From positions 139,599-203,598 of the forward strand of contig OY970327.1 in NCBI GenBank assembly GCA_963717365.1: a stretch of DNA of 64,000 nt, written 5' to 3'. Within the stretch, counting starts at the first letter, position 1. Each line of letters begins with the position of its first letter. The position numbers and the translations under genes were made by a program. Shown here one piece after another: positions 16,936 to 35,635 of this stretch. Under the pieces are notes generated by a model. The model saw only the letters and a program-made list of their open reading frames with translations, did no database searches and was not told where the DNA came from. This stretch comes from Candidatus Saccharimonadia bacterium. Lineage in GTDB: Bacteria; Patescibacteriota; Saccharimonadia; Saccharimonadales; 2-12-FULL-41-12.

Positions 16936-16990
16936 TTTACCTACATAAATGTGTATTTATGCTGATGAGTCCAAAAGGACGAAAGGTAAA
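16936..16990 (+). ncRNA. Type III hammerhead ribozyme HHR1
   Basis: UUUACC-UA|CAUAAAU-GUGU-AUUUAUG-CUGAUGA-GUCC-AAAA-GGAC-GAA-A-GGUAAA. Predicted cleavage after 16943. Confidence 0.85.
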
Positions 16991-17028
16991 ATTACCAACA
17001 GAGTGTTCAATAAGGGGTTTATTTTTAT

Positions 17029-17080
17029 ACACTTTCGCCGTTTACGGCTCATCAGCATAGCTATAGTATCTATGGAGTGT
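17029..17080 (-). ncRNA. Type III hammerhead ribozyme HHR2 (divergent stems)
   Basis: Minus strand: ACAC-UC|CAUAGAUACUAUAGCUAUG-CUGAUGA-GCCG-UAAA-CGGC-GAA-A-GUGU. Stem I has one internal mismatch. Confidence 0.75.
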
Positions 17081-17260
17081 TGTACGGAAGAGCTGCATGT
17101 GTTTTTGTTGGTGGGTCGCTGGAATGCGATCCAAACACATGAGCCCTTCCGCAGGAGTTGATGGCTAACCTCCGAGCCAGTGTGATTTGTCTACTTCTCA
17201 GTAGAGAAGGACCTACTCACACGGTAGAATTTGTTGTACGTTATCCCGACTCAGACTGGA

Positions 17261-18340
17261 TCAGTCGAGGATGCGCGCTGCGTACAGGCCAGCCGGGACA
17301 TCCGGGTCATCCGCGTCGGGGACGAGCAGGACATCGATGCATCCCAGCGTGTGGTTGTACCGCGCGTCGACACCTTCGAGCTTGATGGACTGATCCTCAA
17401 GCGGTAGAAGCTTCACGAGGTTGCCCTCAGCGTCGATGACACCAACGATGCTGCCGGCGATCTGGCCCTTGATGGGTTCGAAATTCGCTTCGGCAGCTCC
17501 GGTGATGACCATGCGACCCTTGGGGTCCTCGTGCACCGAGTCGACATCGGTGAAATCCAGTTTCACCAAGTGACCTTCGTAGTCGGCGGAGCCGAGGTCG
17601 TACTGGCCGAGTTCTTCGAGCTCCAGCTGATCGATCTTGAGATCGGTGCAGAGACTCCACAGGAACTTGTCCAATGCGAGTCGGATCAGCATGTTCGGGG
17701 CAGGTGCACCGTCCTGGTCGAAGCTGTTGCCGCGCTGGGCGAGAACAAGCTGCGAGCCATGCACGGTGACTCCTTCGATGTTCAGCTCGCCGATGACGAT
17801 GTGCTCATCGAGGAACGTGTGCAGGCCTTCGAACGAGATCTTGGCGGGCAGGCCCCTGATGAGTCCGTTCTCGCCGAGCGAGTAGACCACACCAATCGAC
17901 CGGCGGACACCGCCCCAACTCATGCCACCCGATCCGACGATCAGGAGAAGGCCGTTCGGGAAACGTCTGGTCATCTCCATGCGAAGATTGCCATCGCTGA
18001 GGCGATTGATGTCGTCTCGCGTGATGATGGTCAGGGCCTCAAAATCGGCCTTGGCTTCGCTGCGTTCCCGGCCGCCAAGCGGCAGCACTTCGGGGATGAT
18101 GCGCTGCGCCGTGCCTGGCGACAGGATGTCGCGGTCTTCGCCGAGTCGCAATGCCTCTTGGACCTCTGTCCAGGCAATTGAAAACTCGGCCACCGCTGCC
18201 TGATCGTCACCGACCGAACGCAGAAGGCCCGATCGCGGCGACCATGCCACACCCGAGGCGGCTGACAGAAACGGCGGTTCGCCCGGATCCGGGTTAAGGA
18301 TGCGGTGCGTACCGAGTTGGATGAGTTTCAGCGATTGCAA
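17261..18340 (-). CDS. Hypothetical 359-aa protein, GC-rich block B
   Basis: TTG start preceded by aaggag-cacagc. G/C-ending codons. No family recognised. Confidence 0.6.
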   Translation of the reverse strand: MQSLKLIQLGTHRILNPDPGEPPFLSAASGVAWSPRSGLLRSVGDDQAAVAEFSIAWTEVQEALRLGEDRDILSPGTAQRIIPEVLPLGGRERSEAKADFEALTIITRDDINRLSDGNLRMEMTRRFPNGLLLIVGSGGMSWGGVRRSIGVVYSLGENGLIRGLPAKISFEGLHTFLDEHIVIGELNIEGVTVHGSQLVLAQRGNSFDQDGAPAPNMLIRLALDKFLWSLCTDLKIDQLELEELGQYDLGSADYEGHLVKLDFTDVDSVHEDPKGRMVITGAAEANFEPIKGQIAGSIVGVIDAEGNLVKLLPLEDQSIKLEGVDARYNHTLGCIDVLLVPDADDPDVPAGLYAARILD

Positions 18341-18403
18341 GCTGTGCTCCTTGATTGAGCGGGATAGGTACAGGAACTCTGCTTAGTGCAGCTCCATGAG
18401 AAA

Positions 18404-18432
18404 ATTATATAATTAAAGTGACTAAATATCAA
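18404..18432 (-). promoter_or_regulatory. Sigma70-like promoter facing block B
   Basis: Minus strand TTGATA, 17-nt spacer, TATAAT. Confidence 0.45.
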
Positions 18433-18469
18433 TGATGTAGTATTTATAAAAATATGGTATAATAATTTA

Positions 18470-19144
18470 ATGCACAGTAATCTTGAACATCTGCGTGTTC
18501 GCCATAGTACACCAGTCGGCGATGAATTATTGGCAAATAACGAAGTCCTGCAAACAGCAATGGGCTTATTTGCTGCCGCGCAGGAGCCGCATAAGGCCCA
18601 TGTTCCGGGCTCAAGGTTGTTAGGAGCAGGCGAGTTTGGTTTTACTTTTGAGATTGGTGGTATAGCCGTAAAAATAAGCAGCCCTACTTCTAGTCAGAAG
18701 TCTTTTGATCTAGGAAGACCACTTCCTCCAGAAGACTTACGTAAACAATTCCTAACCTTAGCCGCATTAAGAGAACACCTGCAAGGCAAAGAAGAGGGTA
18801 TTGTGACACCTGAACAATACTTTGTAGCAACAACACCATATAAAGCGTTCATACTTGCCCAGGAGTATATGAATGGCTGGGTATCGTATGAAGATCGTAC
18901 TTCTCAGGTATTTGGACCTGCTGTAGAGACAAACGCTACCGACAGGCAAGAAATCGCCCAAGTCTCAGCTGGCATACGTCAACGAATTTTCCGTGCCCTT
19001 GGTGGTTTTGCTTTAATTAATAACATAAATGATCTTGCCTTACATAAAGAATCAGGCGTTCACGGCGGCAACCTGTTAGTACCTGAAACAGCTAATTTCG
19101 ATACGAATATGCCGCTTTGCATAATTGATCAACCGGCACCCTAA
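18470..19144 (+). CDS. Protein-kinase-like protein (possibly a pseudokinase), low GC
   Basis: Gly-loop plus Lys LLGAGEFGFTFEIGGIAVKI and hinge EYMNG. The catalytic loop reads HGGNLLV, lacking the usual Asp. Confidence 0.45.
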   Translation: MHSNLEHLRVRHSTPVGDELLANNEVLQTAMGLFAAAQEPHKAHVPGSRLLGAGEFGFTFEIGGIAVKISSPTSSQKSFDLGRPLPPEDLRKQFLTLAALREHLQGKEEGIVTPEQYFVATTPYKAFILAQEYMNGWVSYEDRTSQVFGPAVETNATDRQEIAQVSAGIRQRIFRALGGFALINNINDLALHKESGVHGGNLLVPETANFDTNMPLCIIDQPAP

Positions 19145-19171
19145 AAAATAAATATAGTCTATAAAATACTA

Positions 19172-19201
19172 TTGACTAAATAGTACTAATTATGATATAA
19201 T
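19172..19201 (+). promoter_or_regulatory. Sigma70-like promoter facing block C
   Basis: TTGACT, 18-nt spacer, TATAAT, ending 4 nt before the GC-rich DNA starts. Confidence 0.45.
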
Positions 19202-19241
19202 CTTGCCGTGCACCACTGTCCAACAAACAAGGGAGAAGCAC

Positions 19242-19700
19242 ATGTCGGAGCATCAGAGGCACTGCCCAGATTGCGGCACGCCCATGCAGAAGTACAAGGA
19301 ACGCGGTGAGACGGTGGATCGCTGCCCGCGCGATGGCATCATCGTGCTGGATCACGGCGAACTGCCGCGGATCATCGCGTCCGTCGCCAGCCAGCCCGGC
19401 TTCCGCCCGCCGCCCCCGCAGCAGGTGAAGCGACGCCCGTTCCGAGGTCTCGGCGCCGGTGTGTTCCACCACAGCTCGTCCTCGGACAAGCACTCGAGTG
19501 GCCATCACGCGCAGGTGTTCCACCACCACAGCTCGTCGGGCCACCAGGTCCATCACGCGCCGGTGTTCCACCACGTCACCTCGGACCACCACGGTCACCA
19601 CGGCTCGCACCACCACAAGTCCCACGACAGCATCTTCGAGGACATCTTCGAGGGCTCGGAGGACGACGGCGGCGGCTGGGAGGACTCGGGCGACGAGTAG
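19242..19700 (+). CDS. Zinc-ribbon (zf-TFIIB-like) protein with His-rich, acidic C-terminus, block C
   Basis: CPDCGTPM...DRCPRDGIIVLDHGEL, then repeated VFHH/HHxxSS/HGHHGSHHHKSH. gggaga RBS. Confidence 0.6.
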   Translation: MSEHQRHCPDCGTPMQKYKERGETVDRCPRDGIIVLDHGELPRIIASVASQPGFRPPPPQQVKRRPFRGLGAGVFHHSSSSDKHSSGHHAQVFHHHSSSGHQVHHAPVFHHVTSDHHGHHGSHHHKSHDSIFEDIFEGSEDDGGGWEDSGDE

Positions 19701-19731
19701 CGACGCAGGCAACAGCCTGATACTCCGCGCA

Positions 19732-19771
19732 GGGGGCACCAGATTGAGTGGTAACACTCGCTGGTGCCCCC
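19732..19771 (+). terminator. GC-rich hairpin without U-tract (high-GC-style terminator)
   Basis: gggggcaccag-(18 nt)-ctggtgccccc. Confidence 0.5.
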
Positions 19772-19848
19772 ATCGGAGGTAAGAAAAGTAAAATTTGTTG
19801 TCCTAAATTGACTCCCAACACATTTTTTACAATTCTTACCTCCACATA

Positions 19849-19899
19849 TGCCTTCATGAATGTGTATTCATGCTGATGAGTCCTAAAGGACGAAAGGCA
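19849..19899 (+). ncRNA. Type III hammerhead ribozyme HHR3
   Basis: UGCC-UU|CAUGAAU-GUGU-AUUCAUG-CUGAUGA-GUCC-UAAA-GGAC-GAA-A-GGCA. Predicted cleavage after 19854. Confidence 0.85.
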
Positions 19900-20011
19900 A
19901 TGTAAAAACTTTTTAAAACATGCTACTACATCAAATTGATTTAATCCGCTCATGCTTGCAATCTATACAAGCCAGGTGTTAAATATTCTTTTAAAAGGGA
20001 CAGCTACACGT

Positions 20012-20440
20012 ATGGCAAATTATGAAGTAACTGATTGTAAATCGATATATAAAATCGTGGAAGTGGCATATACCGATGGACTCGAAGGTAGCTACGAAAC
20101 ACCCCAAGAGACAACCGTATACAAAGTGGAGCCACCGTTTAATCCTGGCGAAGGTTTTACAAAACTGGCACTCGGTGCGTTCTCGTTAGTAACTACATAC
20201 CGTGGGTGCCCTGAGTTCACTCATCTGGCCACAACAGACGAGGCAACCTATTTTGTCTATCGAAACACCGAAGATAGGCCGACACTTCGGATCCTAAGCG
20301 ATAGTTTTCATCTGCAATTAAGTGAATTGCTCGGAAAAGTTAGCAATGATGACCATAAAATGAATACCCTTAGTCTTGCTACGATCGCCGCAAGCAGTGA
20401 AGTTAGTAACGGACGTCCACATATCTCTAGACGTTTCTAA
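20012..20440 (+). CDS. Hypothetical protein (low GC)
   Basis: ORF. ATG at 20012 preferred over the upstream start. Confidence 0.4.
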   Translation: MANYEVTDCKSIYKIVEVAYTDGLEGSYETPQETTVYKVEPPFNPGEGFTKLALGAFSLVTTYRGCPEFTHLATTDEATYFVYRNTEDRPTLRILSDSFHLQLSELLGKVSNDDHKMNTLSLATIAASSEVSNGRPHISRRF

Positions 20441-20506
20441 GTAACAATTCTATATTGACCGTAACAGTTAATAACTTATACTTTATGGTAACTAATAAGG
20501 ATTATT

Positions 20507-21133
20507 ATGGATCAAGATTTTAATAGACAAAAAGCAACGCCTTCAAGCGATGAACCGCCGAAGTATACTCCAGAATCTGCAGTAACCCCTTCCGTACCGC
20601 CCTCAAAGTCAAAATTTTCTGCAACACCAAAATCTAGTCGGCGAAAGGTTTTTGCAATAGTTATAAGCATAACGGTCCTTCTGGCATTAGTTGTTGCAGT
20701 CGCAAGTCTTGTTATGGCAAATAATAAAGCTGACAAGGCTCTCCTGACTGCACAGACAACTAAGTCAGAAGACTTGGAAAAACGCTTGTTGGCCATTGAG
20801 GAAGCAGAAGCCTATAGCGAGAAACAGATCAACCAGAACCAGAATCAGGCGGTATTCCTAGAAGGCGGCCAGGTTTACTTTGGCAAAATTACCGAAATTA
20901 CCAAAGATACCATGAAACTCAAGGATATTTACTATCTTAAAACCGGATCGGTTGATAAAACTGGAAATGTAGTTGGTGGCGCTGATGTCAGCTTAGTAAA
21001 ACTAGGCAATGAATTACATGGACCGGAAGATGCTATGATTATCGAGCGTAAAAATGTGACATTTTGGGAGAATTTGAAGGACGACGGGGAAGTATCCAAG
21101 GCGATTGCTGAATATAAAAAAGCCGGTAGGTAA
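20507..21133 (+). CDS. Membrane-anchored hypothetical protein (low GC)
   Basis: 208 aa with a single TM segment after a Pro/Ser-rich N-terminus. Confidence 0.5.
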   Translation: MDQDFNRQKATPSSDEPPKYTPESAVTPSVPPSKSKFSATPKSSRRKVFAIVISITVLLALVVAVASLVMANNKADKALLTAQTTKSEDLEKRLLAIEEAEAYSEKQINQNQNQAVFLEGGQVYFGKITEITKDTMKLKDIYYLKTGSVDKTGNVVGGADVSLVKLGNELHGPEDAMIIERKNVTFWENLKDDGEVSKAIAEYKKAGR

Positions 21134-21382
21134 TTCGTTAAAATATTTCAAGAATTTTTACAATAATAATTACTTTCACATAAGCATTTTACCCTTGTTA
21201 ACCTATATTTTATTAGCATATAAACATTTCATGTAATTATGTAGCTTTAACAACAAAAAACTGTTAAAATTTTATTAGCTCTCAGAAGCTAGAGGTGAGA
21301 CCTAGTTAACTCCTTGGTTTGTAATTCCTTGAGTGGAAGTATCTGAGTGCACATTAACACTCTAGTCGATTGGAGATCGACG

Positions 21383-22417
21383 ATGATGGCTAACGCCAAC
21401 ATTCCGCAGTTCCCGGTGAACGTGTTCACCCAGCGTGGCGAAACGGTCTACTCGCTCGTCATGAGCGCAAGCGACCTGGCGAAGTACGCCCGAGTCGAGC
21501 GGTACGAAGACACGTCTGACGGCGTCAATCGCAAGCTTGACGAGCGGCACGCCATGAGGATCGCCGAGTACATGCTCGAGCCCAAGGCTGTCATGTTGGA
21601 CGCCATCTGCGGCGACCTGCGTGGCGACTGGCAGATCATCAACAACATGCTGGTCGGCGACGAGGACTCCTACCTGTCGATCGACGATGGCCAGCACCGG
21701 TGGTGGGCAGTAACCAACCTGTTGGTCCCGGAAGAGCGTTCGCGGTGGTCATTCCCGACCGTTGCGACGATGGGTCTCGACTACGAGACTCGCATGGCCA
21801 TCTTCCTGCAGCAGTCGCAGCGGAAGTCGGTCGACAGCAAGCTCAGCCTGGCCATGAAGCACGAACTGGGTCGCTGGAACAACGATGCCGAGCGCGAGTC
21901 CTACACCCTCCTGCTGGCGCTGAACTCCGAGACTGGCTCGCCCCTCCAGGGCAAGATCATCCTCGGAGAGACGCTCCGGCGTTCCTACGAGTCCAGGTAC
22001 CGTCCCGAGGGCATTAACGCCAACGGACTGTGGAACACGCTTCGGTCCGTCATGGGCTCGAAGTCGCCACTGGCGCAGCTGTCCATGGAGAAGCGGATCG
22101 AAGTCGTCCGCAACATCATCTGGGTGGCAAAGGAGACGTGGCCAAAGGACTGGGAGTCTGACCACAGCATCCTGACGACAGCACGGGGGATCAACTCGAT
22201 CATCACGATGATCAGACGGAGGCCGTCGGAGTTCCAGGTCGCCATCAACAACGACTTCAGCATCGACAACCTGCGTCGCGTGTTCCGCTACGCCAAGTCG
22301 TTCAAGTGGCACGCCAACGAGCACAAGAACGCCAGCGACAAGACCATCACCGAGGCGCTCGACAAGGCCATCGGTGCCGGTATGAGGCGTGACAGAAGCG
22401 TTCAGCTCGTCGCGTAA
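21383..22417 (+). CDS. DGQHR-domain (DndB-like, ParB/Srx-fold) protein, block D
   Basis: Literal DGQHRWWA motif. ggaga RBS before ATGATG. Confidence 0.7.
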   Translation: MMANANIPQFPVNVFTQRGETVYSLVMSASDLAKYARVERYEDTSDGVNRKLDERHAMRIAEYMLEPKAVMLDAICGDLRGDWQIINNMLVGDEDSYLSIDDGQHRWWAVTNLLVPEERSRWSFPTVATMGLDYETRMAIFLQQSQRKSVDSKLSLAMKHELGRWNNDAERESYTLLLALNSETGSPLQGKIILGETLRRSYESRYRPEGINANGLWNTLRSVMGSKSPLAQLSMEKRIEVVRNIIWVAKETWPKDWESDHSILTTARGINSIITMIRRRPSEFQVAINNDFSIDNLRRVFRYAKSFKWHANEHKNASDKTITEALDKAIGAGMRRDRSVQLVA

Positions 22418-22495
22418 TCCCAAACGCACTAGTACGGCACCTTCCTTCACGGATGAAGTAAGGTGTCTGTACTAGGGCATGAAAGAGGTAACTCT

Positions 22496-23800
22496 ATGGA
22501 GGAAACCAACGGAAAGGTGATGGCACGAAACTGGTTCTACCAGGATTACCTGCCATCCATCTTGAGCCCGCGGTCGCTTCGCGCGAGTAACTACCTCGTT
22601 CTACTTGGGGAAGACTTTCGCGAACTGCCGCTCTTTGAAGAGCTGGAGGTCCCACTGTACCGGATTTTCTCGGTAGAGAATGACCAAAAGATCTTCGCTC
22701 GTCAGCGTGCTCACGCTCGCCGCGAGGAACTGGATGTAGTCCTGCATCACGGTGCGCTCTCTGAGTACATCCAGGACTACCTCATGACCGACCACCGGAT
22801 CTCGGTGTTCAACCTAGATATCTGTGGCTCATACTTGAAGGGGATTGACCCAGTTCTTGGGAAACTCCTGCTGTTTGCCCGGCGCAATCCGAGCACAATT
22901 ATGGCCACCTACTCGAGCGCCGCCCGAGATCGTCCGCAGCTCATGGAAGGGCTGAAATCACTCGTGGTACTTCTCTGGCTTGCTCCGGAGGTGATCGACC
23001 GCTTGGTACGGCATCTGTACAGCCAGTATCGGACGGCGTCACTTTCGGATAGAGAACGGAGCAGGGACGAAGTCAGCGTCAATATGCTGCTTCGGCACCT
23101 GTTCTGGATGAGAAGTCACATGGAACACATCCTTGTCGGATCGTATACGTTGGGCATGACGTCCTACGAAACGCTCTGCCGGGTGATGACAGACCAGAAT
23201 AAGGTCTGGGAGGAGTTCCTGGCGGACGCCACATTCCCGTTGACGTACGAAGCGGTTGTGGAATGGATCCTGAGAAAGAAAGAACCCGATCTCAGGAAGG
23301 TCAGGATGGATGTCTCCTTCGGGGACGTGCAATTCCTGACCTATGCCGCCAATAGCGGTTTCTACCAGAACTGCTACTTCGCCACCTACGAGCATGACGG
23401 GTCAACCCTGTCGCTCAGTAACTGGCTGGTCGAATCGGCCAAGAACCTCCGTACCAACCGCATTGTCATCGTTGACACTAACGGTGAGCAGTACCCGACG
23501 ACCTTTGGTCGGATTGCGGTTGACACCGACAAAGCGGTGCTCTGGAGCAAGAATGATCTGACATCCGACCTACGTAATGTGGCAATTCCGCCTTCCTCCG
23601 TTCAGGAGCGCGTGGCAGATGAGTCACAAAACGGAGTGTCGAATGACATCATGGAGCTGACACCCGAAACGATCGAGCAGATTCATAAGCTCGCCCGTCT
23701 TGGACTGAACTCCAGGGAAATTAGCGAGAAACTCTCGCTGAAGCTTCCGATGCCACGGATCACTGCCCAGGTCGCTCTGGCCCGGAGAAAATCTCCATAG
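22496..23800 (+). CDS. Hypothetical partner protein with C-terminal HTH, block D
   Basis: About 434 aa. C-terminus IEQIHKLARLGLNSREISEKLSL resembles an HTH. The start could instead be 22463. Confidence 0.55.
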   Translation: MEETNGKVMARNWFYQDYLPSILSPRSLRASNYLVLLGEDFRELPLFEELEVPLYRIFSVENDQKIFARQRAHARREELDVVLHHGALSEYIQDYLMTDHRISVFNLDICGSYLKGIDPVLGKLLLFARRNPSTIMATYSSAARDRPQLMEGLKSLVVLLWLAPEVIDRLVRHLYSQYRTASLSDRERSRDEVSVNMLLRHLFWMRSHMEHILVGSYTLGMTSYETLCRVMTDQNKVWEEFLADATFPLTYEAVVEWILRKKEPDLRKVRMDVSFGDVQFLTYAANSGFYQNCYFATYEHDGSTLSLSNWLVESAKNLRTNRIVIVDTNGEQYPTTFGRIAVDTDKAVLWSKNDLTSDLRNVAIPPSSVQERVADESQNGVSNDIMELTPETIEQIHKLARLGLNSREISEKLSLKLPMPRITAQVALARRKSP

Positions 23801-23930
23801 ACAGGAGGTGTTAAGAAAACCCGCTACCCGTAACGGAAGCAACAAGGCACAAAGGGGCAAATGAGGACATGCCTACAACCTCCCGGGTGGAACAAGTTGA
23901 GCTATACGCTCCTTTTCCATCCGGTCCCTC

Positions 23931-23983
23931 GAATTTCGTAAAGTGTGTACTTTACCTGATGAGTCCAAAAGGACGAAAAATTC
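23931..23983 (+). ncRNA. Type III hammerhead ribozyme HHR4
   Basis: GAAUU-UC|GUAAAGU-GUGU-ACUUUAC-CUGAUGA-GUCC-AAAA-GGAC-GAA-A-AAUUC. Predicted cleavage after 23937. Confidence 0.85.
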
Positions 23984-24023
23984 CGCCCCAAGAAGCTTTT
24001 ACTATTACATCTATACTATACTA

Positions 24024-24052
24024 TTGACAATATAACTAAAATTTGCTATAAT
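24024..24052 (+). promoter_or_regulatory. Consensus sigma70 promoter
   Basis: TTGACA, 17-nt spacer, TATAAT, 40 nt after HHR4. Confidence 0.55.
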
Positions 24053-24159
24053 TATCAAATAAATCGCTCATGTTTATAGCGGGGCCTTTTAATGCAAGTT
24101 ATAATACATAGCGAAGGTATATATGAAATATAAATCCTTCAACAGAGTAAAACACCTAA

Positions 24160-26961
24160 ATGAATTTTGATCGTACCATTATGACCAACAGGGGTAAACC
24201 AGAACCAACCAATCGTGACGAAGAAATGGTGGTTCTTTTGTTGCAAGTCCCTCGTACGAACGACAAGAAAGAGCTGGCAGCCGAACAAATGTTTGCGTCG
24301 CTCCACGGCCTGTTAATGTTTCCGCCGCAAAAAAGATTCCAGGGTGCTAAGCGGGTACGTATTAGTTTTGAAATTGCCGTGCTACAAAAACGAATCGGCT
24401 TTTATGTTTGCGTTCCACAGTATCTTAAAGGCTTTGTAGAAGAGCAAATTTATGCGCAGTATCCAACCGTTCAAATTTCTGAAGTTATAGACTACTCTGT
24501 ACCAAACCAAGCCCACCAAAGCCGAACGCTTATGTCCGAGATGCGCCTGTCTAATAACGACGCTCTCCCAATAAAAACCTTCCAGAGTTTTGAAGTTGAC
24601 CCGCTTGCAGCCATCACTGCCACCTTGGCAAAATTTGAAGCCGGCGAAGAAGCCTGGATTCAATTAGTAATCCAGCCAGCTTCGAAGAACTGGCATAAAA
24701 AAAGCGAACGCTACATTGGTGGCTTACGCGAATCATCCGGCGGTACATCTTCCAAGGGACTTATTGCTGCACTATGGGCTCCACCGGAATACACTGCTTC
24801 TGGTTCAACAGCTGCAAAGCTAACCGAATATGAACAGTCACGAGCTAAAGGCGCCGAAGATAAAAGCCATAAACTATCGTTTGAAGCATCACTACGAATT
24901 GTCTATAAAGGTAACGTATCTCCGGATGAAGCTCGGTTGCGTCTTCAATCAATTGCGGCCAGCTTTAAGCAGTTCAATACCACTTATTTGAACGGTTTTG
25001 AACAAGGACGAATTAGCGAAGACTCAGCGGCATTATTACAGTATCAGGAACGCAAGTTAAACAAACGTCCTAACATCCTTAATATTGAAGAAATTGCTAC
25101 CTTATATCACTTACCCCACACTACCGTGGAAACCCCGTATATCTTATGGGCCTTGAGCCAGACGGCTGAGCCGCCGGCCAACCTGCCAATAGTGACAGAA
25201 AGCAATAAGGCCGACATTAGCCCTATTGCAGTTGCTAATTTCCGCGGCCATAACACCGCTTTTGGCATGCCGCGGTCTGATAGGGGACGTCACTTGTATA
25301 TCCTTGGACAGACCGGTGTTGGTAAGTCGGGTATGTTGGAACTACTGACTATTGCCGATATCGATAGTCCGTACGGCTTTGCCGTTATTGACCCTCACGG
25401 CGACTACGCTATTAATATTTTAAAACGCATTCCAGCGTCTCGTGCTAAAGATGTAATTTATTTCAACCCGTCTGATATGGACTTTCCAATTGCCTTTAAC
25501 CCAATGGAAGTATCAGATCCCAAGTTGCGCACTCACACCGTATCTGAGCTGATTGGCGTTTTAAAGCGTATGTTTGAGTCATGGGGACCACGCCTAGAAT
25601 ACATCCTGCGTTATAGTCTCTTGGCACTGCTCGAATATCCAAATGCTACTATGCTGGACATCACTAAGATCCTAACTGATAAAAACTTCCGCAAAGAAGT
25701 CCTAACTTACGTAAAAGATCCCGTAGTATATAACTTCTGGACGGTAGAGTTTGCCTCATGGAATGATAAGTTTGCCGCTGAAGCAGTTGCGCCAGTTTTG
25801 AATAAAGTCGGTGCCTTTACGGCCAACCCGATTATCCGCAATATTATCGGTCAGCCAAAAAGTAGCTTTAATATCCGTCAAATTATGGATGAACGCAAAA
25901 TCTTGATTGTAAACTTAAGCAGAGGACTGATTGGCGAAGACAATGCAGGACTACTGGGAGCACTACTTGTTACCAAGATCCAACTAGCAGCCATGAGCCG
26001 AGCCGATATCCCGGTAGAGGAACGTACCCCGTTCTACTTATATGTGGACGAATTTCAACATTTTGCTACCGACAGCTTTGCCACTATTTTGAGCGAGGCC
26101 CGAAAATACGGTCTTAACTTAACCGTGGCAAACCAATATATTGCCCAGATGTCCCAAGAAGTTAAAGATGCCGTCTTTGGCAACGTCGGCTCGATGATTG
26201 CCTTCCGTATGGGCGCCGATGATGCCCGCGGCATGCTGAAATACTTCGAACCAAAATTCCTGGAATACGACCTAGTACACATGCACAACCGCCACTTTGT
26301 TATTAATATGACCATTAATGGTGAAAAAACCCAAGCGTTCTCAGCCTTGAGTATTGACCTGCCCGACCGGCAGTTTGATGAAACGCTTACTATTATTGAT
26401 CATTCTCGCTCACAATACGCCCTGCATCGTGGTTCAGTAGAAGATCATATTGGCGGCCGCTATCTGCTTGAAAATAAACCTGCACCTGCCAAAATTACCG
26501 CGCAAGCTGGCACACCTGCGCCTAAGTCGGCGGCAACACGTAAAACGGTCGCCGCACAAAGCGAAGTTGCGCGTAAACCGGAAAGTCCTCAATCCGCTGC
26601 GCCGAAACTCGCCGAAACAAGTAAACCTCAAAAATCGTTAACAAACACCATCACCCTCAAAATGAAAGGCGCTGTTGCCAGTATGGGTCATGCCGCCTTA
26701 ATGAAGCCGACCGCCCTAAAACCTGCTATTAAGCCCAATCCCGTGATTGACGTTGTATCGGCTGAAACGGCAGTTGCAGAAGTTGCCGCCAAGCCGACCG
26801 ACATTGTTAAGCCGGAAATTCCAGTTCAAAAAGCAGCAACTCAACCCATCTCTGACGCCGAGCCAGCTCCTGAGAAAAAAAAGCGCAAACGAACCAGGCG
26901 AAAGAAAAAGAACTTTCAAAGTCTGGAAAATGACACTGAACATGTCATCTTCACAAGATAA
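24160..26961 (+). CDS. VirD4/TraD-like (type IV secretion coupling / DUF87-type) P-loop ATPase
   Basis: Walker A GQTGVGKSG, Walker B LYVDEFQHF, ARKYGLNLTVANQ. Low-complexity Ala/Pro/Lys tail. Confidence 0.6.
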   Translation: MNFDRTIMTNRGKPEPTNRDEEMVVLLLQVPRTNDKKELAAEQMFASLHGLLMFPPQKRFQGAKRVRISFEIAVLQKRIGFYVCVPQYLKGFVEEQIYAQYPTVQISEVIDYSVPNQAHQSRTLMSEMRLSNNDALPIKTFQSFEVDPLAAITATLAKFEAGEEAWIQLVIQPASKNWHKKSERYIGGLRESSGGTSSKGLIAALWAPPEYTASGSTAAKLTEYEQSRAKGAEDKSHKLSFEASLRIVYKGNVSPDEARLRLQSIAASFKQFNTTYLNGFEQGRISEDSAALLQYQERKLNKRPNILNIEEIATLYHLPHTTVETPYILWALSQTAEPPANLPIVTESNKADISPIAVANFRGHNTAFGMPRSDRGRHLYILGQTGVGKSGMLELLTIADIDSPYGFAVIDPHGDYAINILKRIPASRAKDVIYFNPSDMDFPIAFNPMEVSDPKLRTHTVSELIGVLKRMFESWGPRLEYILRYSLLALLEYPNATMLDITKILTDKNFRKEVLTYVKDPVVYNFWTVEFASWNDKFAAEAVAPVLNKVGAFTANPIIRNIIGQPKSSFNIRQIMDERKILIVNLSRGLIGEDNAGLLGALLVTKIQLAAMSRADIPVEERTPFYLYVDEFQHFATDSFATILSEARKYGLNLTVANQYIAQMSQEVKDAVFGNVGSMIAFRMGADDARGMLKYFEPKFLEYDLVHMHNRHFVINMTINGEKTQAFSALSIDLPDRQFDETLTIIDHSRSQYALHRGSVEDHIGGRYLLENKPAPAKITAQAGTPAPKSAATRKTVAAQSEVARKPESPQSAAPKLAETSKPQKSLTNTITLKMKGAVASMGHAALMKPTALKPAIKPNPVIDVVSAETAVAEVAAKPTDIVKPEIPVQKAATQPISDAEPAPEKKKRKRTRRKKKNFQSLENDTEHVIFTR

Positions 26962-28238: not shown

Positions 28239-28270
28239 AAATGACAGACTACATATGTCTGTCATTTTTA
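28239..28270 (+). terminator. Intrinsic terminator
   Basis: aatgacagac-tacatat-gtctgtcatt followed by ttt. Confidence 0.7.
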
Positions 28271-28282
28271 ATTATCAGGTTT

Positions 28283-28350
28283 TAAATTCGGGGGTTACTG
28301 GGGGATGACTTAATTTGGTGGCTGGATTGCCAGAAAAAAAGTCACCCCCC
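28283..28350 (-). repeat. Conserved hairpin element, copy 1 (3' of the vWA gene); left arm of an inverted pair
   Basis: Minus strand GGGGGGUGACUU...AAGUCAUCCCCC-AGUAACCCCCGAAUUUA, which aligns with 30110-30181. Confidence 0.6.
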
Positions 28351-30109: not shown

Positions 30110-30181
30110 GGGGGATGACTTATTTTTTTGGCCTTTCAGCCACCAATCTAAGTCATCCCCCGCTACCACCCCACGAATTTA
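30110..30181 (+). repeat. Conserved hairpin element, copy 2 (3' of terD); right arm of the inverted pair
   Basis: GGGGGAUGACUUA-(26 nt containing UGGC-N6-GCCA)-UAAGUCAUCCCCC-GCUACCACCCCACGAAUUUA. Confidence 0.6.
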
Positions 30182-30401
30182 TTCATTAATATTGATAATA
30201 TTACAAAAATACGGTACAATATCTCATGTGTGCCGTATTTTTTATGTGCACGTACCTTAACAGTGTGAGTAATAAACTACGTTTGTTGAGGAGGGTAAGC
30301 ACTTGCTATTGAGTAATATCAACTGCTTACCCTTTCCAAACTAGACAAATCTTTCTCTGACTTTCCATCTGAAGCAACGACCCAAAAGGAGCGCAGTTCC
30401 T

Positions 30402-31481: not shown

Positions 31482-31508
31482 CCAGCCGCGGCTGACGAAA
31501 AGTGATGA

Positions 31509-31547
31509 GGGTGTGGTCTCTAATGCTCCGCAAAGGAGACCACACCC
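31509..31547 (+). terminator. GC-rich hairpin terminator
   Basis: gggtgtggtctc-(15 nt)-gagaccacaccc, flanked by gaaaag/cttttc. Confidence 0.5.
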
Positions 31548-31610
31548 CGCGCTTTTCGCCTTCTCAATTTTACTCACACTGTTATCTACCACCTTATTAC
31601 AACTAGTATC

Positions 31611-31652
31611 TAAACAAAAAAGAAGCCGTGCTGTATAGCCCGGCTTCTTTTT
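31611..31652. terminator. Bidirectional intrinsic terminator
   Basis: aaaaaa-agaagccg-(12 nt)-cggcttct-tttt. Confidence 0.6.
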
Positions 31653-31665
31653 AAGTCTGAGTATT

Positions 31666-31941
31666 TTACTCTTCTGTGTGTGGTTGGGGAACATCCGCAA
31701 CTAAGTACAATGTCTGTCTTCCTAGTTGATGAGTACCTCCGCCCATACTGTTTGTGCCCAGATTATTAATCTCTACTAGTGCGTGACTGCCAACTATTTT
31801 ACCGTCCTTGGCTGCTGCGTCTTCATAAGCTGCCTTAATATCAGCAGCTACATCTTCCGTGCTGCGTTCATCTATAGAATCATTTTCATCCCACTCTGCG
31901 AATAAGTGGGGACTCTTAATAACGTGTACTTCAAATGGCAT
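31666..31941 (-). CDS. Hypothetical small protein
   Basis: aggag RBS before the ATG at 31941. Confidence 0.4.
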   Translation of the reverse strand: MPFEVHVIKSPHLFAEWDENDSIDERSTEDVAADIKAAYEDAAAKDGKIVGSHALVEINNLGTNSMGGGTHQLGRQTLYLVADVPQPHTEE

Positions 31942-32130
31942 AGTAAATAAACTCCTAAAATTATGACTATAATTATAGCACATTGATATGATAGTGTCAA
32001 TATCAATATCATTATCGTCTAGGTTAGTCAAGCAGAAAAAACACGTAATAACTACTTGTATAGGAAAGAATATAATTTAGAAAACTATAATTGACAAATA
32101 TACAATACAATAATATAATGTAAGTTGATT

Positions 32131-32856
32131 ATGACTGAAAAATTAGTATCACCTCCAGAAGTGATGTTACGTTCACCCGACGTAGCAACGGTGAGTTTTG
32201 ACCTATGGCTGACCTTATTATCGTATCCTGATACAACTTTTCGGGATTGTCGTAATAAATTAGTGCAAGATATACTTGCGCCTGAGATGTCACCTGAAGA
32301 ATTTACCGCCACACTGCATACCCAAGATAAAATAGCCGATAATCTTGCTGAAGACCGAGAGTCAGACGTAACGTTTAACGAGCGCATCAATCGACTAGCC
32401 GCCGCGCTTGGAAAACCAGAACCAACACACGAAGAGCTAATATACTTATATTCTGAACAGGGTAAATTACTTGAAGAACATCCGCCGGTGCTGATTGAGC
32501 CGGAATTGCCGGATTATTTGGATGAGCTGGGTGAGAATCATGGTTTGGCTGTAATTAGCAACACGGGATTCTTACATGGTGACCAGATGAGAAAAGCACT
32601 TGGACAACTAGGTATTAGGGATATGTTTTCTGCTATTATCTTCTCTAATGAAGTTGGAAAGGCAAAACCGCATCCAGCAATTTTCCAAGAACTTACTAGC
32701 CTGAGTAACCAATCTCCTGAAAAAATTGTCCATATTGGCGATAATCGTAAAGCCGATTACCAAGGCGCCTTAGCGGCTGGCATGTCGGCAATACATATTC
32801 CTAGGCGCAGCGGAGTAATTACTGTTTTAAGGGAAACATTGCAACAGGAACACTAA
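32131..32856 (+). CDS. HAD-superfamily hydrolase-like protein
   Basis: VSFDLWLTLL (variant motif I), VISNTG, K...IGDNRKAD. Confidence 0.6.
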   Translation: MTEKLVSPPEVMLRSPDVATVSFDLWLTLLSYPDTTFRDCRNKLVQDILAPEMSPEEFTATLHTQDKIADNLAEDRESDVTFNERINRLAAALGKPEPTHEELIYLYSEQGKLLEEHPPVLIEPELPDYLDELGENHGLAVISNTGFLHGDQMRKALGQLGIRDMFSAIIFSNEVGKAKPHPAIFQELTSLSNQSPEKIVHIGDNRKADYQGALAAGMSAIHIPRRSGVITVLRETLQQEH

Positions 32857-32858
32857 TC

Positions 32859-33722
32859 ATGGATATTTATAAAGTTTCAACACATACCATAATCCCGCAA
32901 GAGGACGGTAGTCTTAGGCTGGAAAATGGCGATCCGTTTGATGCCGAAGCCTACAGTCTCATGAAATATGGCGATAGTCGGAGCGCCCAAATATATGGCA
33001 GTGAGCTCGGGCAAACTTTAATCGATGAAGTGACTGATTCGGTGAGCGGTGACCGCGCCGTATTTACTGTCCCTGCATTTACGTATGCTCCTAAACCAGC
33101 TCTAGCAATTGCCAGAGCAGCCTTAACTCATGTGAATGAATATCGTACCAGTAAGGGTCTAGAACCAGCCAGAATGATGCGTATGCATACCGATCAAATG
33201 GGAACTACAGCTTATGCACAGTCAAGTCTTGAAATGCGCGAAGCAGAAGTTAAGAAATGGCCTACCCAGCACCATATCCCCGCAAGTCTGGTAGAAGATG
33301 CCATTGTCTTTGCGGTTGACGACTGCGTTATTACAGGAGCAACAGAAAAAAAGCTTATTAACAGATTGTCCGCCTATAATCCTGGAACTATTGTGTGTGC
33401 ATATGCGCTCAAAGTCGACCCGGAAAAAGCACTCGAATTTCCGGGAATCGAGCATGTTTTAAATGTGGCTGCCAAGCCTGATCTTGGAACAGTGCTGGAG
33501 CTTATTAATGAGCGTCACTTTACCCTAAACTCACGCGTGCTTGACATGATTCTTGACACTGAGGATATAGATGAACTTAATACGTTTCTTAGAGATTGCC
33601 CGCAAGATATTAGAGCTGATATGTACGAAGCAACGATAAATAGCAGTCTTGAATTTATCGGACGATACCCTGACGCCATAGCCCTCCTCTCGCGGTATGT
33701 GTATGCAGCTGTAACAAACTAA
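32859..33722 (+). CDS. Phosphoribosyltransferase-like protein
   Basis: PRPP-loop-like AIVFAVDDCVITGAT. Confidence 0.5.
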   Translation: MDIYKVSTHTIIPQEDGSLRLENGDPFDAEAYSLMKYGDSRSAQIYGSELGQTLIDEVTDSVSGDRAVFTVPAFTYAPKPALAIARAALTHVNEYRTSKGLEPARMMRMHTDQMGTTAYAQSSLEMREAEVKKWPTQHHIPASLVEDAIVFAVDDCVITGATEKKLINRLSAYNPGTIVCAYALKVDPEKALEFPGIEHVLNVAAKPDLGTVLELINERHFTLNSRVLDMILDTEDIDELNTFLRDCPQDIRADMYEATINSSLEFIGRYPDAIALLSRYVYAAVTN

Positions 33723-33770
33723 CTATCCCAGTCTCATAACAAAAGGAGAGGCCAAGCTAGAGGTCAGTAT

Positions 33771-34754
33771 TTATAATACGGCCCTATCAAGTACTAAGTG
33801 AGTGGGTGCCAATTTTTCGGCAACTTGTTGGATGCGCCTTTGTCTGACTGATTGCTGCAAAGCGGTAAAGTTTTCAAAATATTCAGGTCGGGTATGATGG
33901 CCATCGCTAACTACACCGGCTAAGATAGCTCGTGCGTTAGCATAAGGGACGTTAGCAACGAATTCATGGATTTGCTCAGGAGTATGAGCTGCGTCCATGA
34001 TAAAACGACAGATACGGGCATTAACTTCAAAATCAGACCGTTTGGCAATGATTTCTAGTTCACTAAGGCCCGTAACATATACTTGGTTTAAATCTGACTC
34101 AATCTTTGGATAGCGGGCTGCCAGTTCCGGGTCAATTACCGCAGCGTAACAAAATACCATGCGTCCGACACCGGCGTCTGTGAGCGCTGCTGCAAATGAT
34201 CGCTCGTTGCTACCGGTGTTTCTAACGTCATCAAAGACAATAACCGTTTTATTTGCCACATCTTTGGCGTATACCGTCGGAACATGAACGTTATTATCTT
34301 CAATGTACGTTTTTCGGTCCGCTTCGGACATCGTGCTGTAATCGCCGCTTTTTATAACTGAGCGATCTATTCTAACTAGCCCCTTTGGTGGAAAGCCAGC
34401 TGATGCAAGCTCGCCTACCATCCGTCTGGTTACATAATACGCAGCAGTAGGAACGTGTTTGTAGGCAGAAGAGGTAATGTAGTAATCATCTAAAATATCT
34501 TCACCTTCACTTTCAAGGATGTTATCTCTCTCCACTAAAAGCTTGTCGGTTACCGAAAGAGCCATATCGTTAGCCGCTTCGCCACAACCGTATTTATATA
34601 AGCTGTAAGCATGGCCGTCAAAGGGTTGGCCTGACTCAAGATCCATTACCCGTTCATTAATAATTGCTAATTTAGCTACCGTGATTTCGCTATGTCTGGA
34701 ATTTTGGGCTGTACGTTCATACATAAAATTTATCCTTGTAATTTGGTGAAACAC
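33771..34754 (-). CDS. Phosphoribosyltransferase-like protein
   Basis: PRPP-loop-like TVIVFDDVRNTGSN. Confidence 0.55.
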   Translation of the reverse strand: MFHQITRINFMYERTAQNSRHSEITVAKLAIINERVMDLESGQPFDGHAYSLYKYGCGEAANDMALSVTDKLLVERDNILESEGEDILDDYYITSSAYKHVPTAAYYVTRRMVGELASAGFPPKGLVRIDRSVIKSGDYSTMSEADRKTYIEDNNVHVPTVYAKDVANKTVIVFDDVRNTGSNERSFAAALTDAGVGRMVFCYAAVIDPELAARYPKIESDLNQVYVTGLSELEIIAKRSDFEVNARICRFIMDAAHTPEQIHEFVANVPYANARAILAGVVSDGHHTRPEYFENFTALQQSVRQRRIQQVAEKLAPTHLVLDRAVL

Positions 34755-34813
34755 GAGTTTTTTTAATCAGGAGGGCCTGAAAGGAGAAAAACTCGCAAAA
34801 ACCTAATTCTGCC

Positions 34814-35488
34814 TTACTTCTTCGCCCTCAGGGTGAACTCATGCCAGTGCACGGAGTCGCCTTCGACGCCGGCGGTGTTCGTGACGCACTGGGCGTAGTC
34901 GATCACCTGGAAGCCGGCGGCTCGGAACAGTCGTTCGATGTCGGCGCGCTGCCAGAACACGAACAAACGTGTGCTCTCCATGCCGAGTGACCGCTTGTCC
35001 CACATGAGGCGGGAGCAGAAGGGGTTGTTCTCGGGATGGTGAGCGACCGTGCAGAACGCATGGGCGTCCGGCTCGAGCACCCGGTGGGTCTCGGTCATGA
35101 CGGCAGGCAGATGCTGGCGCTCGATGTGCTGAAGCACGTTGAGGGCAAGCCAGCCGCCGAAGCTCTCGTCTGCGAAGTCGAGGGCGTCTGCAGTCATGTT
35201 CAGGATCTCGAGACTGGGGTCTCGTTCCTGCGCGAGTTCCACGAAGTGGCTGCTGATGTCGGTGCCGACGTACGAGAAACCACGAGTGTGGAGCAGGTCA
35301 GCCGGATAGGCCTCGCCGCAGCCGATCTCGAGCACGCGTGCGCCAGGCGACAGGTACCTCATGAAACGCTTGACCCAGGGGTCCCAGTACCCAGGGGGGC
35401 GCTTCCAGTCCGTGTTGTTGTAGTACTCCACGGTCTGTGCTTCGTCTGCGGACAGCTGTGTGCCTACCGCTGGCGGAAGTATTGTCAT
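34814..35488 (-). CDS. Class I SAM-dependent methyltransferase, block G
   Basis: Motif I VLEIGCGEAY. gaggagagag RBS. Confidence 0.7.
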   Translation of the reverse strand: MTILPPAVGTQLSADEAQTVEYYNNTDWKRPPGYWDPWVKRFMRYLSPGARVLEIGCGEAYPADLLHTRGFSYVGTDISSHFVELAQERDPSLEILNMTADALDFADESFGGWLALNVLQHIERQHLPAVMTETHRVLEPDAHAFCTVAHHPENNPFCSRLMWDKRSLGMESTRLFVFWQRADIERLFRAAGFQVIDYAQCVTNTAGVEGDSVHWHEFTLRAKK

Positions 35489-35520
35489 CTCTCTCCTCTG
35501 TGGGGAAAAATACCTTTAAT

Positions 35521-35549
35521 ATCATACCAAATAATTGTAAAAAATACAA
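35521..35549 (-). promoter_or_regulatory. Sigma70-like promoter facing block G
   Basis: Minus strand TTGTAT, 17-nt spacer, TATGAT, 33 nt downstream of HHR5. Confidence 0.45.
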
Positions 35550-35582
35550 GTAAGTATAATATTATATTTTTTAGCCATTATT

Positions 35583-35635
35583 TTCACTTTCGTCCTTTTG
35601 GACTCATCAGCATAAATACGCATTTATGGAGTGAA
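35583..35635 (-). ncRNA. Type III hammerhead ribozyme HHR5
   Basis: Minus strand UUCAC-UC|CAUAAAU-GCGU-AUUUAUG-CUGAUGA-GUCC-AAAA-GGAC-GAA-A-GUGAA. Confidence 0.85.

Follow-up and report, generated by a model that had tools for sequence, protein, structure and literature searches.

Five type III hammerhead ribozymes behind foreign-looking genes in a Saccharimonadia genome, with a possible role in forming mRNA 3' ends

What might five hammerhead ribozymes do in a bacterial chromosome when they lie within 18.7 kb of each other and bound blocks of one to four genes? The question is raised by a stretch of 64,000 nt from Candidatus Saccharimonadia bacterium (assembly GCA_963717365.1, contig OY970327.1, positions 139,599 to 203,598), referred to here as the window, for which an original prediction, made from the letters of the sequence, had proposed a family of five compact type III hammerheads. 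We conclude with high confidence that the five sites are true type III hammerheads and genuine members of a selected RNA family. The best overall explanation of their placement, in which our confidence is moderate, is that they stand at the tails of foreign-looking gene units, where they may make mRNA 3' ends.

The ribozymes are located at 16935-16991 (plus strand, hammerhead 1), 17026-17083 (minus, hammerhead 2), 19846-19902 (plus, hammerhead 3), 23929-23985 (plus, hammerhead 4), and 35581-35637 (minus, hammerhead 5). All five follow the same order: stem III 5' strand, U16.1, H17, stem I hairpin, CUGAUGA, stem II hairpin, GAA, A15.1, and stem III 3' strand. The catalytic core (C3 U4 G5 A6 N7 G8 A9 with G12 A13 A14) is represented by exact CUGAUGA and GAA motifs in 5/5 copies, the A15.1:U16.1 pair is present in each, and H17 is A, C, U, C, and C in copies 1 to 5, never G. 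Stem III pairs as UUUACC/GGUAAA in hammerhead 1 (CUA triplet, predicted cut after A16943), ACAC/GUGU in hammerhead 2 (CUC, between 17075 and 17074), UGCC/GGCA in hammerhead 3 (CUU, after U19854), GAAUU/AAUUC in hammerhead 4 (UUC, after C23937), and UUCAC/GUGAA in hammerhead 5 (CUC, after the C at 35629). In the alignment to the family model described below, stem III is the open helix carrying the 5' and 3' ends, stems I and II are closed, and G10.1-C11.1 closes stem II. Direct reading of all five loci confirmed the complete consensus and layout that the original prediction had described, including the triplets without G at the H position, a stem III that differs in each copy yet remains complementary in 5/5, compensatory pairs in stem I, and a GUCC-NAAA-GGAC stem II in four copies; the cut sites were correct against the position rulers. 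Hammerhead 2 is the divergent copy, with a longer loop of stem I and a GCCG-UAAA-CGGC stem II, a variant also present in a dense array on a Parcubacteria contig (L032; loci and contigs carrying the core are cited by L number where they must be told apart), so that stem II covaries both in window copy 2 and in L032. Hammerheads 1 and 5 share 92% identity across 52 nt (inverted repeat I1). The three-way junction is the minimum free energy (MFE) structure in 4/5 copies, among them hammerheads 1 (z = -3.1), 2, and 4, and stems II and III are retained in the fifth.

The pattern CTGATGA-N6-30-GAAA occurs eight times in the window against 0.94 expected; the two other CTGATGA...GAAA matches (355-387 and 38445-38480) are at chance level. 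A covariance model, R1, was built from 96 family members outside the window in an ungapped 57-column alignment and run on the window with filters off. It revealed exactly five matches at 42.9-75.6 bits (E = 5e-24 to 2e-12), with 75.3 bits for hammerhead 1 (E = 6.6e-24), 42.9 for hammerhead 2 (E = 2.4e-12), 70.8 for hammerhead 3, 70.4 for hammerhead 4, and 75.6 for hammerhead 5. The next match, at 23594-23638 on the plus strand, reaches 14.7 bits (E = 0.029); it lies within a 445-aa open reading frame (ORF), its stem I is broken and its core altered, and it is probably due to chance, or possibly a decayed hammerhead copy. Within the window, neither R1 nor Rfam in E-value mode detected further hammerheads or other ribozyme classes, and in the latter mode the five sites were the sole hammerhead-clan matches.

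At curated thresholds, Rfam reports five tRNAs and no hammerhead in the window. The original prediction had offered the Rfam hammerhead models as a check and sub-cutoff scores as grounds for abandoning the claim, and here the outcome is divided. Formally, the copies fall short: RF00008 gives 34.3 bits to hammerhead 3 (across the full model), 27.8 to hammerhead 5, 26.9 to hammerhead 2, and 22.1 to hammerhead 1, against a curated gathering cutoff of 48.5 bits, which is an operational criterion and neither a structural nor a biochemical definition, and hammerhead 4 is matched only by RF00163 (20.9 bits). The shortfall, however, lies with the model, since the alignments show that it penalizes the 4-nt loop 2, which aligns with a 4-nt deletion, the insertion and length of stem I, and the AU-rich stem III; relatives of the same architecture pass the cutoff (L100, 54.0 bits, and L079, 49.6 bits, both from the candidate phyla radiation; L193, 48.6 bits).

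To place the copies in a wider family, one genome per species was scanned for the exact core CTGATGAGTCCNAAAGGACGAAA, which yielded at least 118 stretches; the figures that follow are among the matches listed. Sixty-one of the 80 loci listed are labelled Patescibacteria (candidate phyla radiation, CPR), comprising 38 Saccharibacteria and 23 other CPR groups, while 12 belong to other phyla and 7 are unclassified. The same design of stem I, loop, and stem II is spread over at least 100 genomes, mostly Patescibacteria/CPR. Among these matches, 132 instances were parsed for features not fixed by the search pattern, and 130 were parseable. A perfect stem I hairpin adjoins CUGAUGA in 130/132 instances (7 bp in 111, a 4-nt loop in 106, GUGU in 62), 129 of the 130 that could be parsed carry U16.1, and H17 is C in 94, U in 26, A in 10, and G in none. 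Stem III of at least 3 bp forms in 124/130, compared with 16.5 expected with shuffled partners (maximum 24), and the family contains 87 distinct stem I and 93 distinct stem III sequences. In the 96-member alignment, where stem I pairing was imposed by selection and stem III pairing was not used for selection, pairing at the inner stem III positions is 97-100%, with 4-5 pair types at each, and the covariation score is 0.694, against 0.189 in shuffled alignments and at most 0.127 with slid partners. Together with the R1 scores of 42.9-75.6 bits, this covariation bears out the earlier argument that covarying stems around a frozen core indicate functional-type RNAs and not chance matches. The loops are likewise constrained: the apical U is invariant, G is found in at least 90%, GUGU occurs in 62/130, and loop 2 reads NAAA. 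The helices are fixed at 7 bp and 4 bp.

A less favorable reading is that the five copies are inactive relics or chance look-alikes which match the consensus without cleaving in vivo, owing to misfolding with neighboring hairpins or to the lack of a working loop-loop contact. The sub-cutoff Rfam scores agree with such a reading, as do a competing stem I fold in copy 5 and the fold of copy 2, which is no better than shuffles (z = -0.9). However, the independent R1 model assigns E-values of 1e-12 to 1e-24, no copy carries a core mutation, G17 is found in 0/130 family members, compensatory changes occur throughout, and conservation extends to loop 1 (apical U, then G) and loop 2 (NAAA), as expected of a maintained tertiary contact. 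We consider this reading very improbable.

The exact core is also found on 78 viral contigs, and 68/80 matches there share the compact layout. Three virusoid-sized viral contigs (L139, 366 nt; L148, 377 nt; L193, 322 nt) combine a 7-bp stem I, a GUGU or GCGU loop, and a GUCC-GAAA-GGAC stem II, and a viral contig of 457 nt bears a hairpin ribozyme in addition to its family hammerhead. Judging by their sizes, the contigs of 366, 377, and 322 nt are probably plant virusoid or sobemovirus satellite RNAs. The hammerheads of plant virusoid and satellite RNAs are the original type III hammerheads; the compact layout is the classic type III design and not a new kind of element. Across 100 loci, R1 returned 145 matches, including arrays of 11 copies in ~4 kb (L032), 7 in ~3 kb (L007), and 5 in ~5 kb (L079). 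The suggestion that five copies in about 19 kb are unusually dense did not survive this comparison: such clustering is typical of the family, and the window is no outlier.

Having established what the elements are, we turn to where they stand. The coding strands around the five copies were settled by Pfam matches and by the periodicity of GC content at third codon positions (GC3). On these strands, every copy lies downstream of a same-strand GC3-rich gene, with gaps of 168, 181, 149, 131, and ~349 nt for copies 1 to 5. A gap of 38 nt separates copies 1 and 2, which point toward one another between convergent genes and, as a convergent pair, have no same-strand gene downstream to serve. Copy 3 lies 52 nt upstream of the next same-strand gene, and copy 5 lies 93 nt upstream of a same-strand methyltransferase gene. 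Between hammerhead 4 and the gene of a 933-aa ATPase, a consensus sigma-70 promoter (TTGACA-17-TATAAT with TG, 24024-24052, plus strand, 12/12 matches) places hammerhead 4 outside the 5' untranslated region (UTR) made from that promoter. Copy 5 is followed by an extended -10 element, TGgTATGAT (called by eye), and a Shine-Dalgarno sequence ahead of the methyltransferase start, so that it too is probably upstream of the promoter of the next gene, as far as a promoter called by eye allows. A placement between promoter and ribosome-binding site, as in RiboJ, is not seen for copies 1 and 2, which lack a same-strand gene downstream, or for copy 4, which precedes a promoter, and probably not for copy 5; copy 3 could be placed either way. 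The unit transcribed from the 24024 promoter ends, without a hammerhead, at a bidirectional intrinsic terminator with an 11-bp hairpin and T-runs on both sides (28239-28267), a contrast showing that the organism also uses classic terminators.

The same asymmetry is visible across the family, as judged from longest-ORF gene calls. The upstream neighbor is on the same strand in 74 cases and on the opposite strand in 25, ending a median of 77 nt before the ribozyme, whereas the downstream neighbor is same-strand in 59 and opposite in 36, starting a median of 122 nt after it. GC content reaches 0.521 in the 500 nt upstream (p = 4.5e-13) compared with 0.467 in the 500 nt downstream and a locus mean of 0.461, and in the adjacent 100 nt it is 0.497 upstream versus 0.391 downstream. 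Upstream ORFs have a GC3 of 0.58 against 0.47 for downstream ORFs (p = 1e-5), with median lengths of 185 aa and 168 aa, respectively. Pfam families also divide unequally, with 8 in 72 upstream ORFs and 56, many of them housekeeping, in 54 downstream ORFs.

These figures bear on a rival explanation in which the hammerhead belongs to the downstream gene and, as a natural RiboJ, trims a variable leader to leave an mRNA that begins with a 5'-OH and a hairpin cap and whose translation and stability are defined. In the type III topology, the ribozyme body remains on the downstream piece, which suits such 5'-leader processing, as does the position of hammerheads 3 and 5, 52 and 93 nt upstream of same-strand genes; in addition, 59/95 downstream genes in the family are same-strand, and the downstream genes are ordinary conserved genes. 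However, hammerheads 1 and 2 converge without a same-strand gene beyond them, hammerhead 4 precedes the consensus promoter of the next gene and hammerhead 5 probably does likewise, and the asymmetry of composition and hairpins lies on the upstream side. Moreover, 62% of downstream neighbors on the same strand is about the usual proportion for neighboring bacterial genes, which counts against this explanation as well. Taken with the placement in the window, leader processing appears quite unlikely.

The upstream side is marked by structure as well as by composition. Three stacked hairpins (16800-16932, plus strand; MFE -61.2 kcal/mol, z = -7.7) occupy the space between the stop of ORF 16427-16768 and hammerhead 1, and the last of them (16873-16932) ends 3 nt before its stem III. 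On the minus strand, a hairpin domain downstream of the DUF6910 gene (17084-17224; MFE -62.1 kcal/mol, z = -7.3) includes a long hairpin, 17152-17084, whose end is 3 nt from stem III of hammerhead 2. Two long hairpins (19732-19771 and 19775-19843, plus strand; inverted repeat I12) follow ORF 19203-19700 within 19732-19843 (MFE -65.8 kcal/mol, z = -9.1), the second ending 5 nt before stem III of hammerhead 3; the fold statistics of copies 1-3 refer to ~145 nt upstream of each. At hammerhead 4, the hairpin CCGGGUGGAA...UUCCAUCCGG (23884-23923, plus strand) ends 7 nt before stem III, and the 128-nt stretch there has z = -1.2. At hammerhead 5, the long hairpin GGGGUAGAAA...UUUCUACCCU (35639-35697, minus strand; z = -3.2) ends 3 nt before stem III; it encloses a small hairpin, followed by a U-rich run, with terminator-like matches at 35708-35690 and 35675-35661. 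Common to 5/5 copies is a long hairpin, its 5' arm rich in purines and its 3' arm in pyrimidines, that stops 3-7 nt short of stem III. These are not intrinsic terminators in the usual sense: the hairpins adjoining copies 1-4 have no U-tract, a U-rich run being present at copy 5 only, and the 15.5-24.5 kb region contains five terminator-like sites against 9.0 expected. Across the family, 70% of 193 instances (83% on viral contigs) have a stable domain, with a dG of -8 kcal/mol or lower, whose end falls no more than 6 nt from stem III, compared with 44% at positions shifted 150 nt upstream and 46% in shuffled sequence.

Considering this association of a gene end, a hairpin, and a hammerhead, we propose the following course of events. 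Hammerheads cleave 3' of position 17; the upstream piece then ends in a 2',3'-cyclic phosphate, and the downstream piece begins with a 5'-OH. RNA polymerase would read past the hairpin, the 57-nt ribozyme would fold, with stem III the last helix to close, and the RNA would cut itself after position 17. From the chemistry, the upstream mRNA would be freed with the hairpin, 6-9 additional nucleotides, and a 2',3'-cyclic phosphate end; the short stem III may allow the two products to separate, and the ribozyme body with its 5'-OH would be kept on any RNA made downstream. The module could in this way yield a defined, exonuclease-resistant mRNA 3' end and uncouple the transcript of an imported gene from neighboring genes or from antisense read-through, acting as a ribozyme-based counterpart or back-up of an intrinsic terminator. 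We regard this specific role, a ribozyme-made mRNA 3' end or insulator, as an evenly balanced proposition.

Several points weigh against the proposed 3'-end role. Cleavage leaves RNA polymerase running and therefore does not account for insulation of transcription itself, and hammerhead 3 could equally serve the downstream gene, as it lies only 52 nt upstream of it on the same strand. The window copies score below the RF00008 cutoff, and their self-cleavage is predicted from sequence alone. The family context figures rest on crude longest-ORF gene calls, 26/134 family instances lie within a called ORF, and the excess of convergent over divergent placement, 22 versus 12, follows the expected trend without being significant (p = 0.12). 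The hairpin statistic is noisy, because the controls already reach 44-46%, and the hairpin may instead, or also, aid folding of the ribozyme, for example by stacking on the short stem III.

The hammerheads lie within a stretch of patchy composition (15.6-37.2 kb, GC 0.38-0.57), which we call the island. It encodes an ion-channel-like protein, a DUF6910 protein, a Zn-ribbon protein, a DndB-like protein, the 933-aa HerA/TraG-like ATPase, methyltransferases, and a Ter cluster consisting of vWA-TerF, TerD, a TerC-family membrane protein (matching DUF475 and TerC), two phosphoribosyltransferases, and a HAD protein. GC3 periodicity was calibrated on Pfam-supported genes and then applied to ambiguous coding strands, which settled those of 16427-16768 (plus), 19203-19700 (plus), 22463-23800 (plus), and 36702-37145 (minus). 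GC3 is 0.68-0.94 in island genes and 0.34-0.48 in host-like genes (LigA, LeuS, and the ORFs at 18470, 19952, and 20507). Throughout 15600-37200, GC3-rich and host-like genes alternate, sometimes in what appears to be a single operon; the ORFs at 19952 and 20507, with GC3 of 0.37-0.38, are followed by the DndB-like gene at 0.86. This alternation suggests repeated gene imports from high-GC donors. In a search for a donor, tblastn of the DUF6910 protein against plasmids gave matches only below 30% identity, in Rhizobiales.

Upstream of hammerhead 1 lie a GC3-rich ion-channel-like ORF (15808-16368, plus; Pfam Ion_trans_2, E = 5.8e-8) and the 113-aa ORF 16427-16768 (plus), with GC3 of 0.81 and 0.94. 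The gene preceding hammerhead 2 is the GC3-rich DUF6910/DUF6929 gene (17261-18340, minus; Pfam E = 1e-27, GC3 0.75), which has a promoter-like site at 18432-18404 (minus, 11/12 matches). Hammerhead 3 follows a Zn-ribbon ORF (19203-19700, plus; Pfam Zn_ribbon_TFIIB, E = 4e-7, GC3 0.87) with a promoter-like site at 19172-19201; an overlapping minus-strand ORF, which a public gene caller had chosen at this place, shows the antisense GC3 pattern. Hammerhead 4 follows the DndB-like gene and the 445-aa ORF (21347-23800, plus; Pfam DndB, E = 2.8e-11; GC3 0.86 and 0.68). Upstream of hammerhead 5 stands a GC-rich coding block (35984-37145, minus) with the frames 36702-37145 and 35984-36784 (GC3 0.88 and 0.74), where the plus-strand ORF shows the antisense pattern; the two frames may be one frameshifted gene or two separate genes, and no Pfam match was obtained for the proteins of this block.

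Such surroundings invite a reading in which hairpin and hammerhead form the end of mobile gene cassettes or of transcripts from phages or integrative elements, the cleavage serving the element and not host mRNA metabolism; it would, for instance, process long element transcripts, or excise and possibly circularize RNA segments, and the five copies would record five acquisitions. The same layout is met in 68/80 viral-contig matches, all five copies follow compositionally foreign genes, and arrays such as L032 flank short non-coding structured RNAs. The 933-aa ATPase (24160-26961) has phage relatives (phrog_5156, E = 2e-75; a relative in Bacillus phage G), with homologs near hammerheads in four other genomes, and the literature ties bacterial hammerheads to prophages (PMC3088659, PMC6765202). 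Against this stand the absence of integrase and phage structural genes from the island, the lack of a PHROG match for 9/10 of its proteins, and the fact that the five sites share no repeated sequence beyond the ~45-nt ribozyme body, with neither a terminal repeat nor a shared cassette boundary. Furthermore, between the only same-strand neighbors in the window, hammerheads 3 and 4, lie 4.1 kb of coding DNA, which sets them apart from retrozyme- or viroid-like units. The mobile-element reading seems unlikely on this evidence; it overlaps with the 3'-end explanation and is compatible with it.

Two other origins of the island were rejected. Its identification as a prophage is unsupported, given the gene content and PHROG result just described and the absence of any nucleotide match to phage records. 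An engineered construct with RiboJ-type insulators had been suspected from the patchy GC (0.38-0.57); it was dismissed because the Ter, DndB-like, and ATPase genes form a natural island, the locus comes from a public metagenome assembly, and the motif is widespread in uncultured genomes.

Additional features of the island and its flanks were recorded. The ATPase is mad8-like in PADLOC, and its homologs lie a few kb from family hammerheads at L008:3-397, L009:7615-7992, L037:5819-7582, and L045:6378-7496; in L008 and L009, the hammerhead comes after the ATPase operon, a position held in the window by the classic terminator. Strong, near-identical promoters of the TATTGACA-N17-TGCTATAAT type precede island genes at 24022-24055, 31969-32002 (minus), 32091-32119, and 19158-19201; some are very near the ORF start, and the corresponding mRNAs may be leaderless. 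A 49-nt inverted repeat (28290-28338 and 30123-30171, 80% complementary) flanks the GC-rich vWA-TerF and TerD pair, and each of its arms overlaps or adjoins a terminator-like hairpin. Beyond the hammerhead island, an IS1595-family transposase (10094-10948, minus) and an HNH endonuclease ORF (43700-44296, plus) between the tRNA genes 43583-43653 and 44304-44386 are signs of a plastic region. At 46-50 kb, a housekeeping block (M48 peptidase, a 321-aa protein, LigA) has a syntenic counterpart on a Saccharibacteria contig, with 50-73% amino-acid identity, which points to a host that is probably a Saccharibacteria-type CPR bacterium.

The wider family contains arrangements of its own. In L032:2342-6530 (JANLIU010000041.1, a Parcubacteria metagenome-assembled genome), at least 10 same-strand hammerheads are separated by spacers alternating between ~80 nt and 215-250 nt. 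Each long spacer contains the same three-hairpin RNA (GGUCGGRRC..GYYCCGAC, CUUAAGU..UUUAAGG, and CAGUGCUUUCGAAAGAGAGUGCUG), with compensatory changes between copies and an MFE of -76 to -86 kcal/mol. In this array, no tRNAs, no credible ORFs, and no Rfam match other than the hammerheads were found, and the spacer RNA has the look of an unknown small RNA excised by ribozymes, one that may be circular. The idea that the arrays flank tRNAs or small ORFs was rejected: no tRNA lies within the hammerhead arrays of L032, L079, or L012, the two tRNAs of L007 are outside its array, and there are no credible ORFs between the L032 copies.

In a subfamily found mainly in Saccharibacteria, the module consists of a hairpin, a U/C-rich tract, TGTCTGCTTGTCAT, and a hammerhead with a conserved stem III UUCGC/GCGAA (L039, L115, L088, L102, L008, L009, L094, L051, L048, L055, L103, L084, L108, and L073). 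The TGTCTGCTTGTCAT module lies ~45 nt upstream of each hammerhead, in unrelated genomic contexts, and window copy 1 has a weak form of it, CCTGCCGCAT. Two identities of TGTCTGCTTGTCAT were considered and rejected, namely the 3' end of 5S rRNA, as Rfam finds no rRNA in 16 such loci, and an opposite-strand gene start (ATGACAAGCAG), as the opposite-strand ORFs are 7-36 aa. In many Parcubacteria-type members, GTTCTTTRAAA lies within ~10 nt downstream of the hammerhead (stem III CUGUC/GAAACAG), for example at L002:3070-3090 and 7161-7181 and in L003, L007, L015, L070, L079, L096, and L097. GTTCTTTRAAA resembles the boxA antitermination element; a location of this subfamily in rRNA operons is unsupported, with no rRNA in 18 loci of 8 kb each and N-masking in 5/119 loci. 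In the phage-like contig L120, a DUF805b RNA motif (RF02914, 42.7 bits) occurs at 3733-3765, ~540 nt downstream of a hammerhead.

Beyond this locus, it is conceivable that, in CPR bacteria and their phages, a hairpin with a compact type III hammerhead forms a portable 3'-end and insulation module that accompanies horizontally acquired GC-rich genes, or is installed behind them, and so delimits gene cassettes in place of an intrinsic terminator. We advance this generalization tentatively and consider it rather doubtful. If it were true, bacterial hammerheads would have a first concrete function of general scope, and their clustering in accessory islands would be explained. The window is a clean natural case in which position argues for one role of bacterial hammerheads, and the patterns lead to a testable proposal, that hairpin-protected, ribozyme-made mRNA 3' ends insulate imported genes. 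If the 3'-end proposal is wrong, the finding remains one of ordinary new members of a well-known ribozyme class.

The ribozyme class and its clustered, gene-flanking arrangement are already known, bacterial genomic hammerheads having been described since 2010-2011; the contribution here is the positional evidence together with family-wide patterns, which suggest a testable function. In a literature search that left subscription journals mostly outside, we found neither work linking hammerheads with Patescibacteria, CPR, Saccharibacteria, or Parcubacteria, or containing this core, nor the family patterns reported here (enrichment in Patescibacteria, GC-rich upstream genes without Pfam match, and the abutting hairpin). 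Perreault et al. (2011) reported hundreds of bacterial hammerheads, many of them near integrases or prophages (PMC3088659). Several copies often flank single genes or short gene blocks of variable and often unknown function, cleavage was shown for three such arrangements, and processing of long transcripts to gene-length mRNAs was proposed (PMC3088659). The window shares with those clusters several closely spaced hammerheads that flank genes or short gene blocks. However, the earlier clusters comprise hammerheads of types I, II, and III and are found close to integrases or prophage genes, whereas the window contains a single compact type III subfamily in a CPR-type genome, its island is not a recognizable prophage and has no integrase-adjacent location, and its convergent pair does not fit simple processing of a polycistron. 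Reviews of 2017 and 2019 (PMC6765202) describe hammerheads that flank small non-conserved ORFs, with a possible role in mRNA processing or in the 3' UTR and an undefined purpose.

Among other known systems, virusoid and satellite type III hammerheads (RF00008) resemble the window copies in core, topology, GUCC-GAAA-GGAC stem II, and 7-bp stem I with GUGU or GCGU. They differ in that the window copies occur singly, at the ends of genes of a cellular DNA genome, and not in a rolling-circle RNA replicon; loop 2 is mostly AAAA here and GAAA there, and stem III in the window is short (4-6 bp) and stands behind a large hairpin. The arrangement of retrozyme- or viroid-like units, in which two same-strand hammerheads surround a short non-coding unit whose ends are usually repeated, is seen in L032 but not in the window. 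In the synthetic ribozyme insulators (RiboJ, LtsvJ, and similar) that Lou et al. reportedly described in 2012, the ribozyme lies between the promoter and the ribosome-binding site. There, too, a type III hammerhead removes upstream RNA so that neighboring parts do not influence each other, whereas at least 4/5 window copies are on the 3' side of the unit. Intrinsic terminators and 3' stabilizing hairpins occupy the same place after the gene and put a strong hairpin at the RNA 3' end, but in the window this end would come from self-cleavage of the RNA and not from polymerase release. Finally, self-cleaving ribozymes in 3' UTRs, such as the mammalian Clec2 hammerhead and twister in bacterial 3' UTR reporters, alter expression (PMC6765202), and they resemble the proposed module in that what becomes of the mRNA depends on a ribozyme placed downstream of the coding region. 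In those systems, cleavage mostly lowers expression by loss of a stabilizing tail, whereas the hairpin that precedes each ribozyme in the window suggests a protected cut end.

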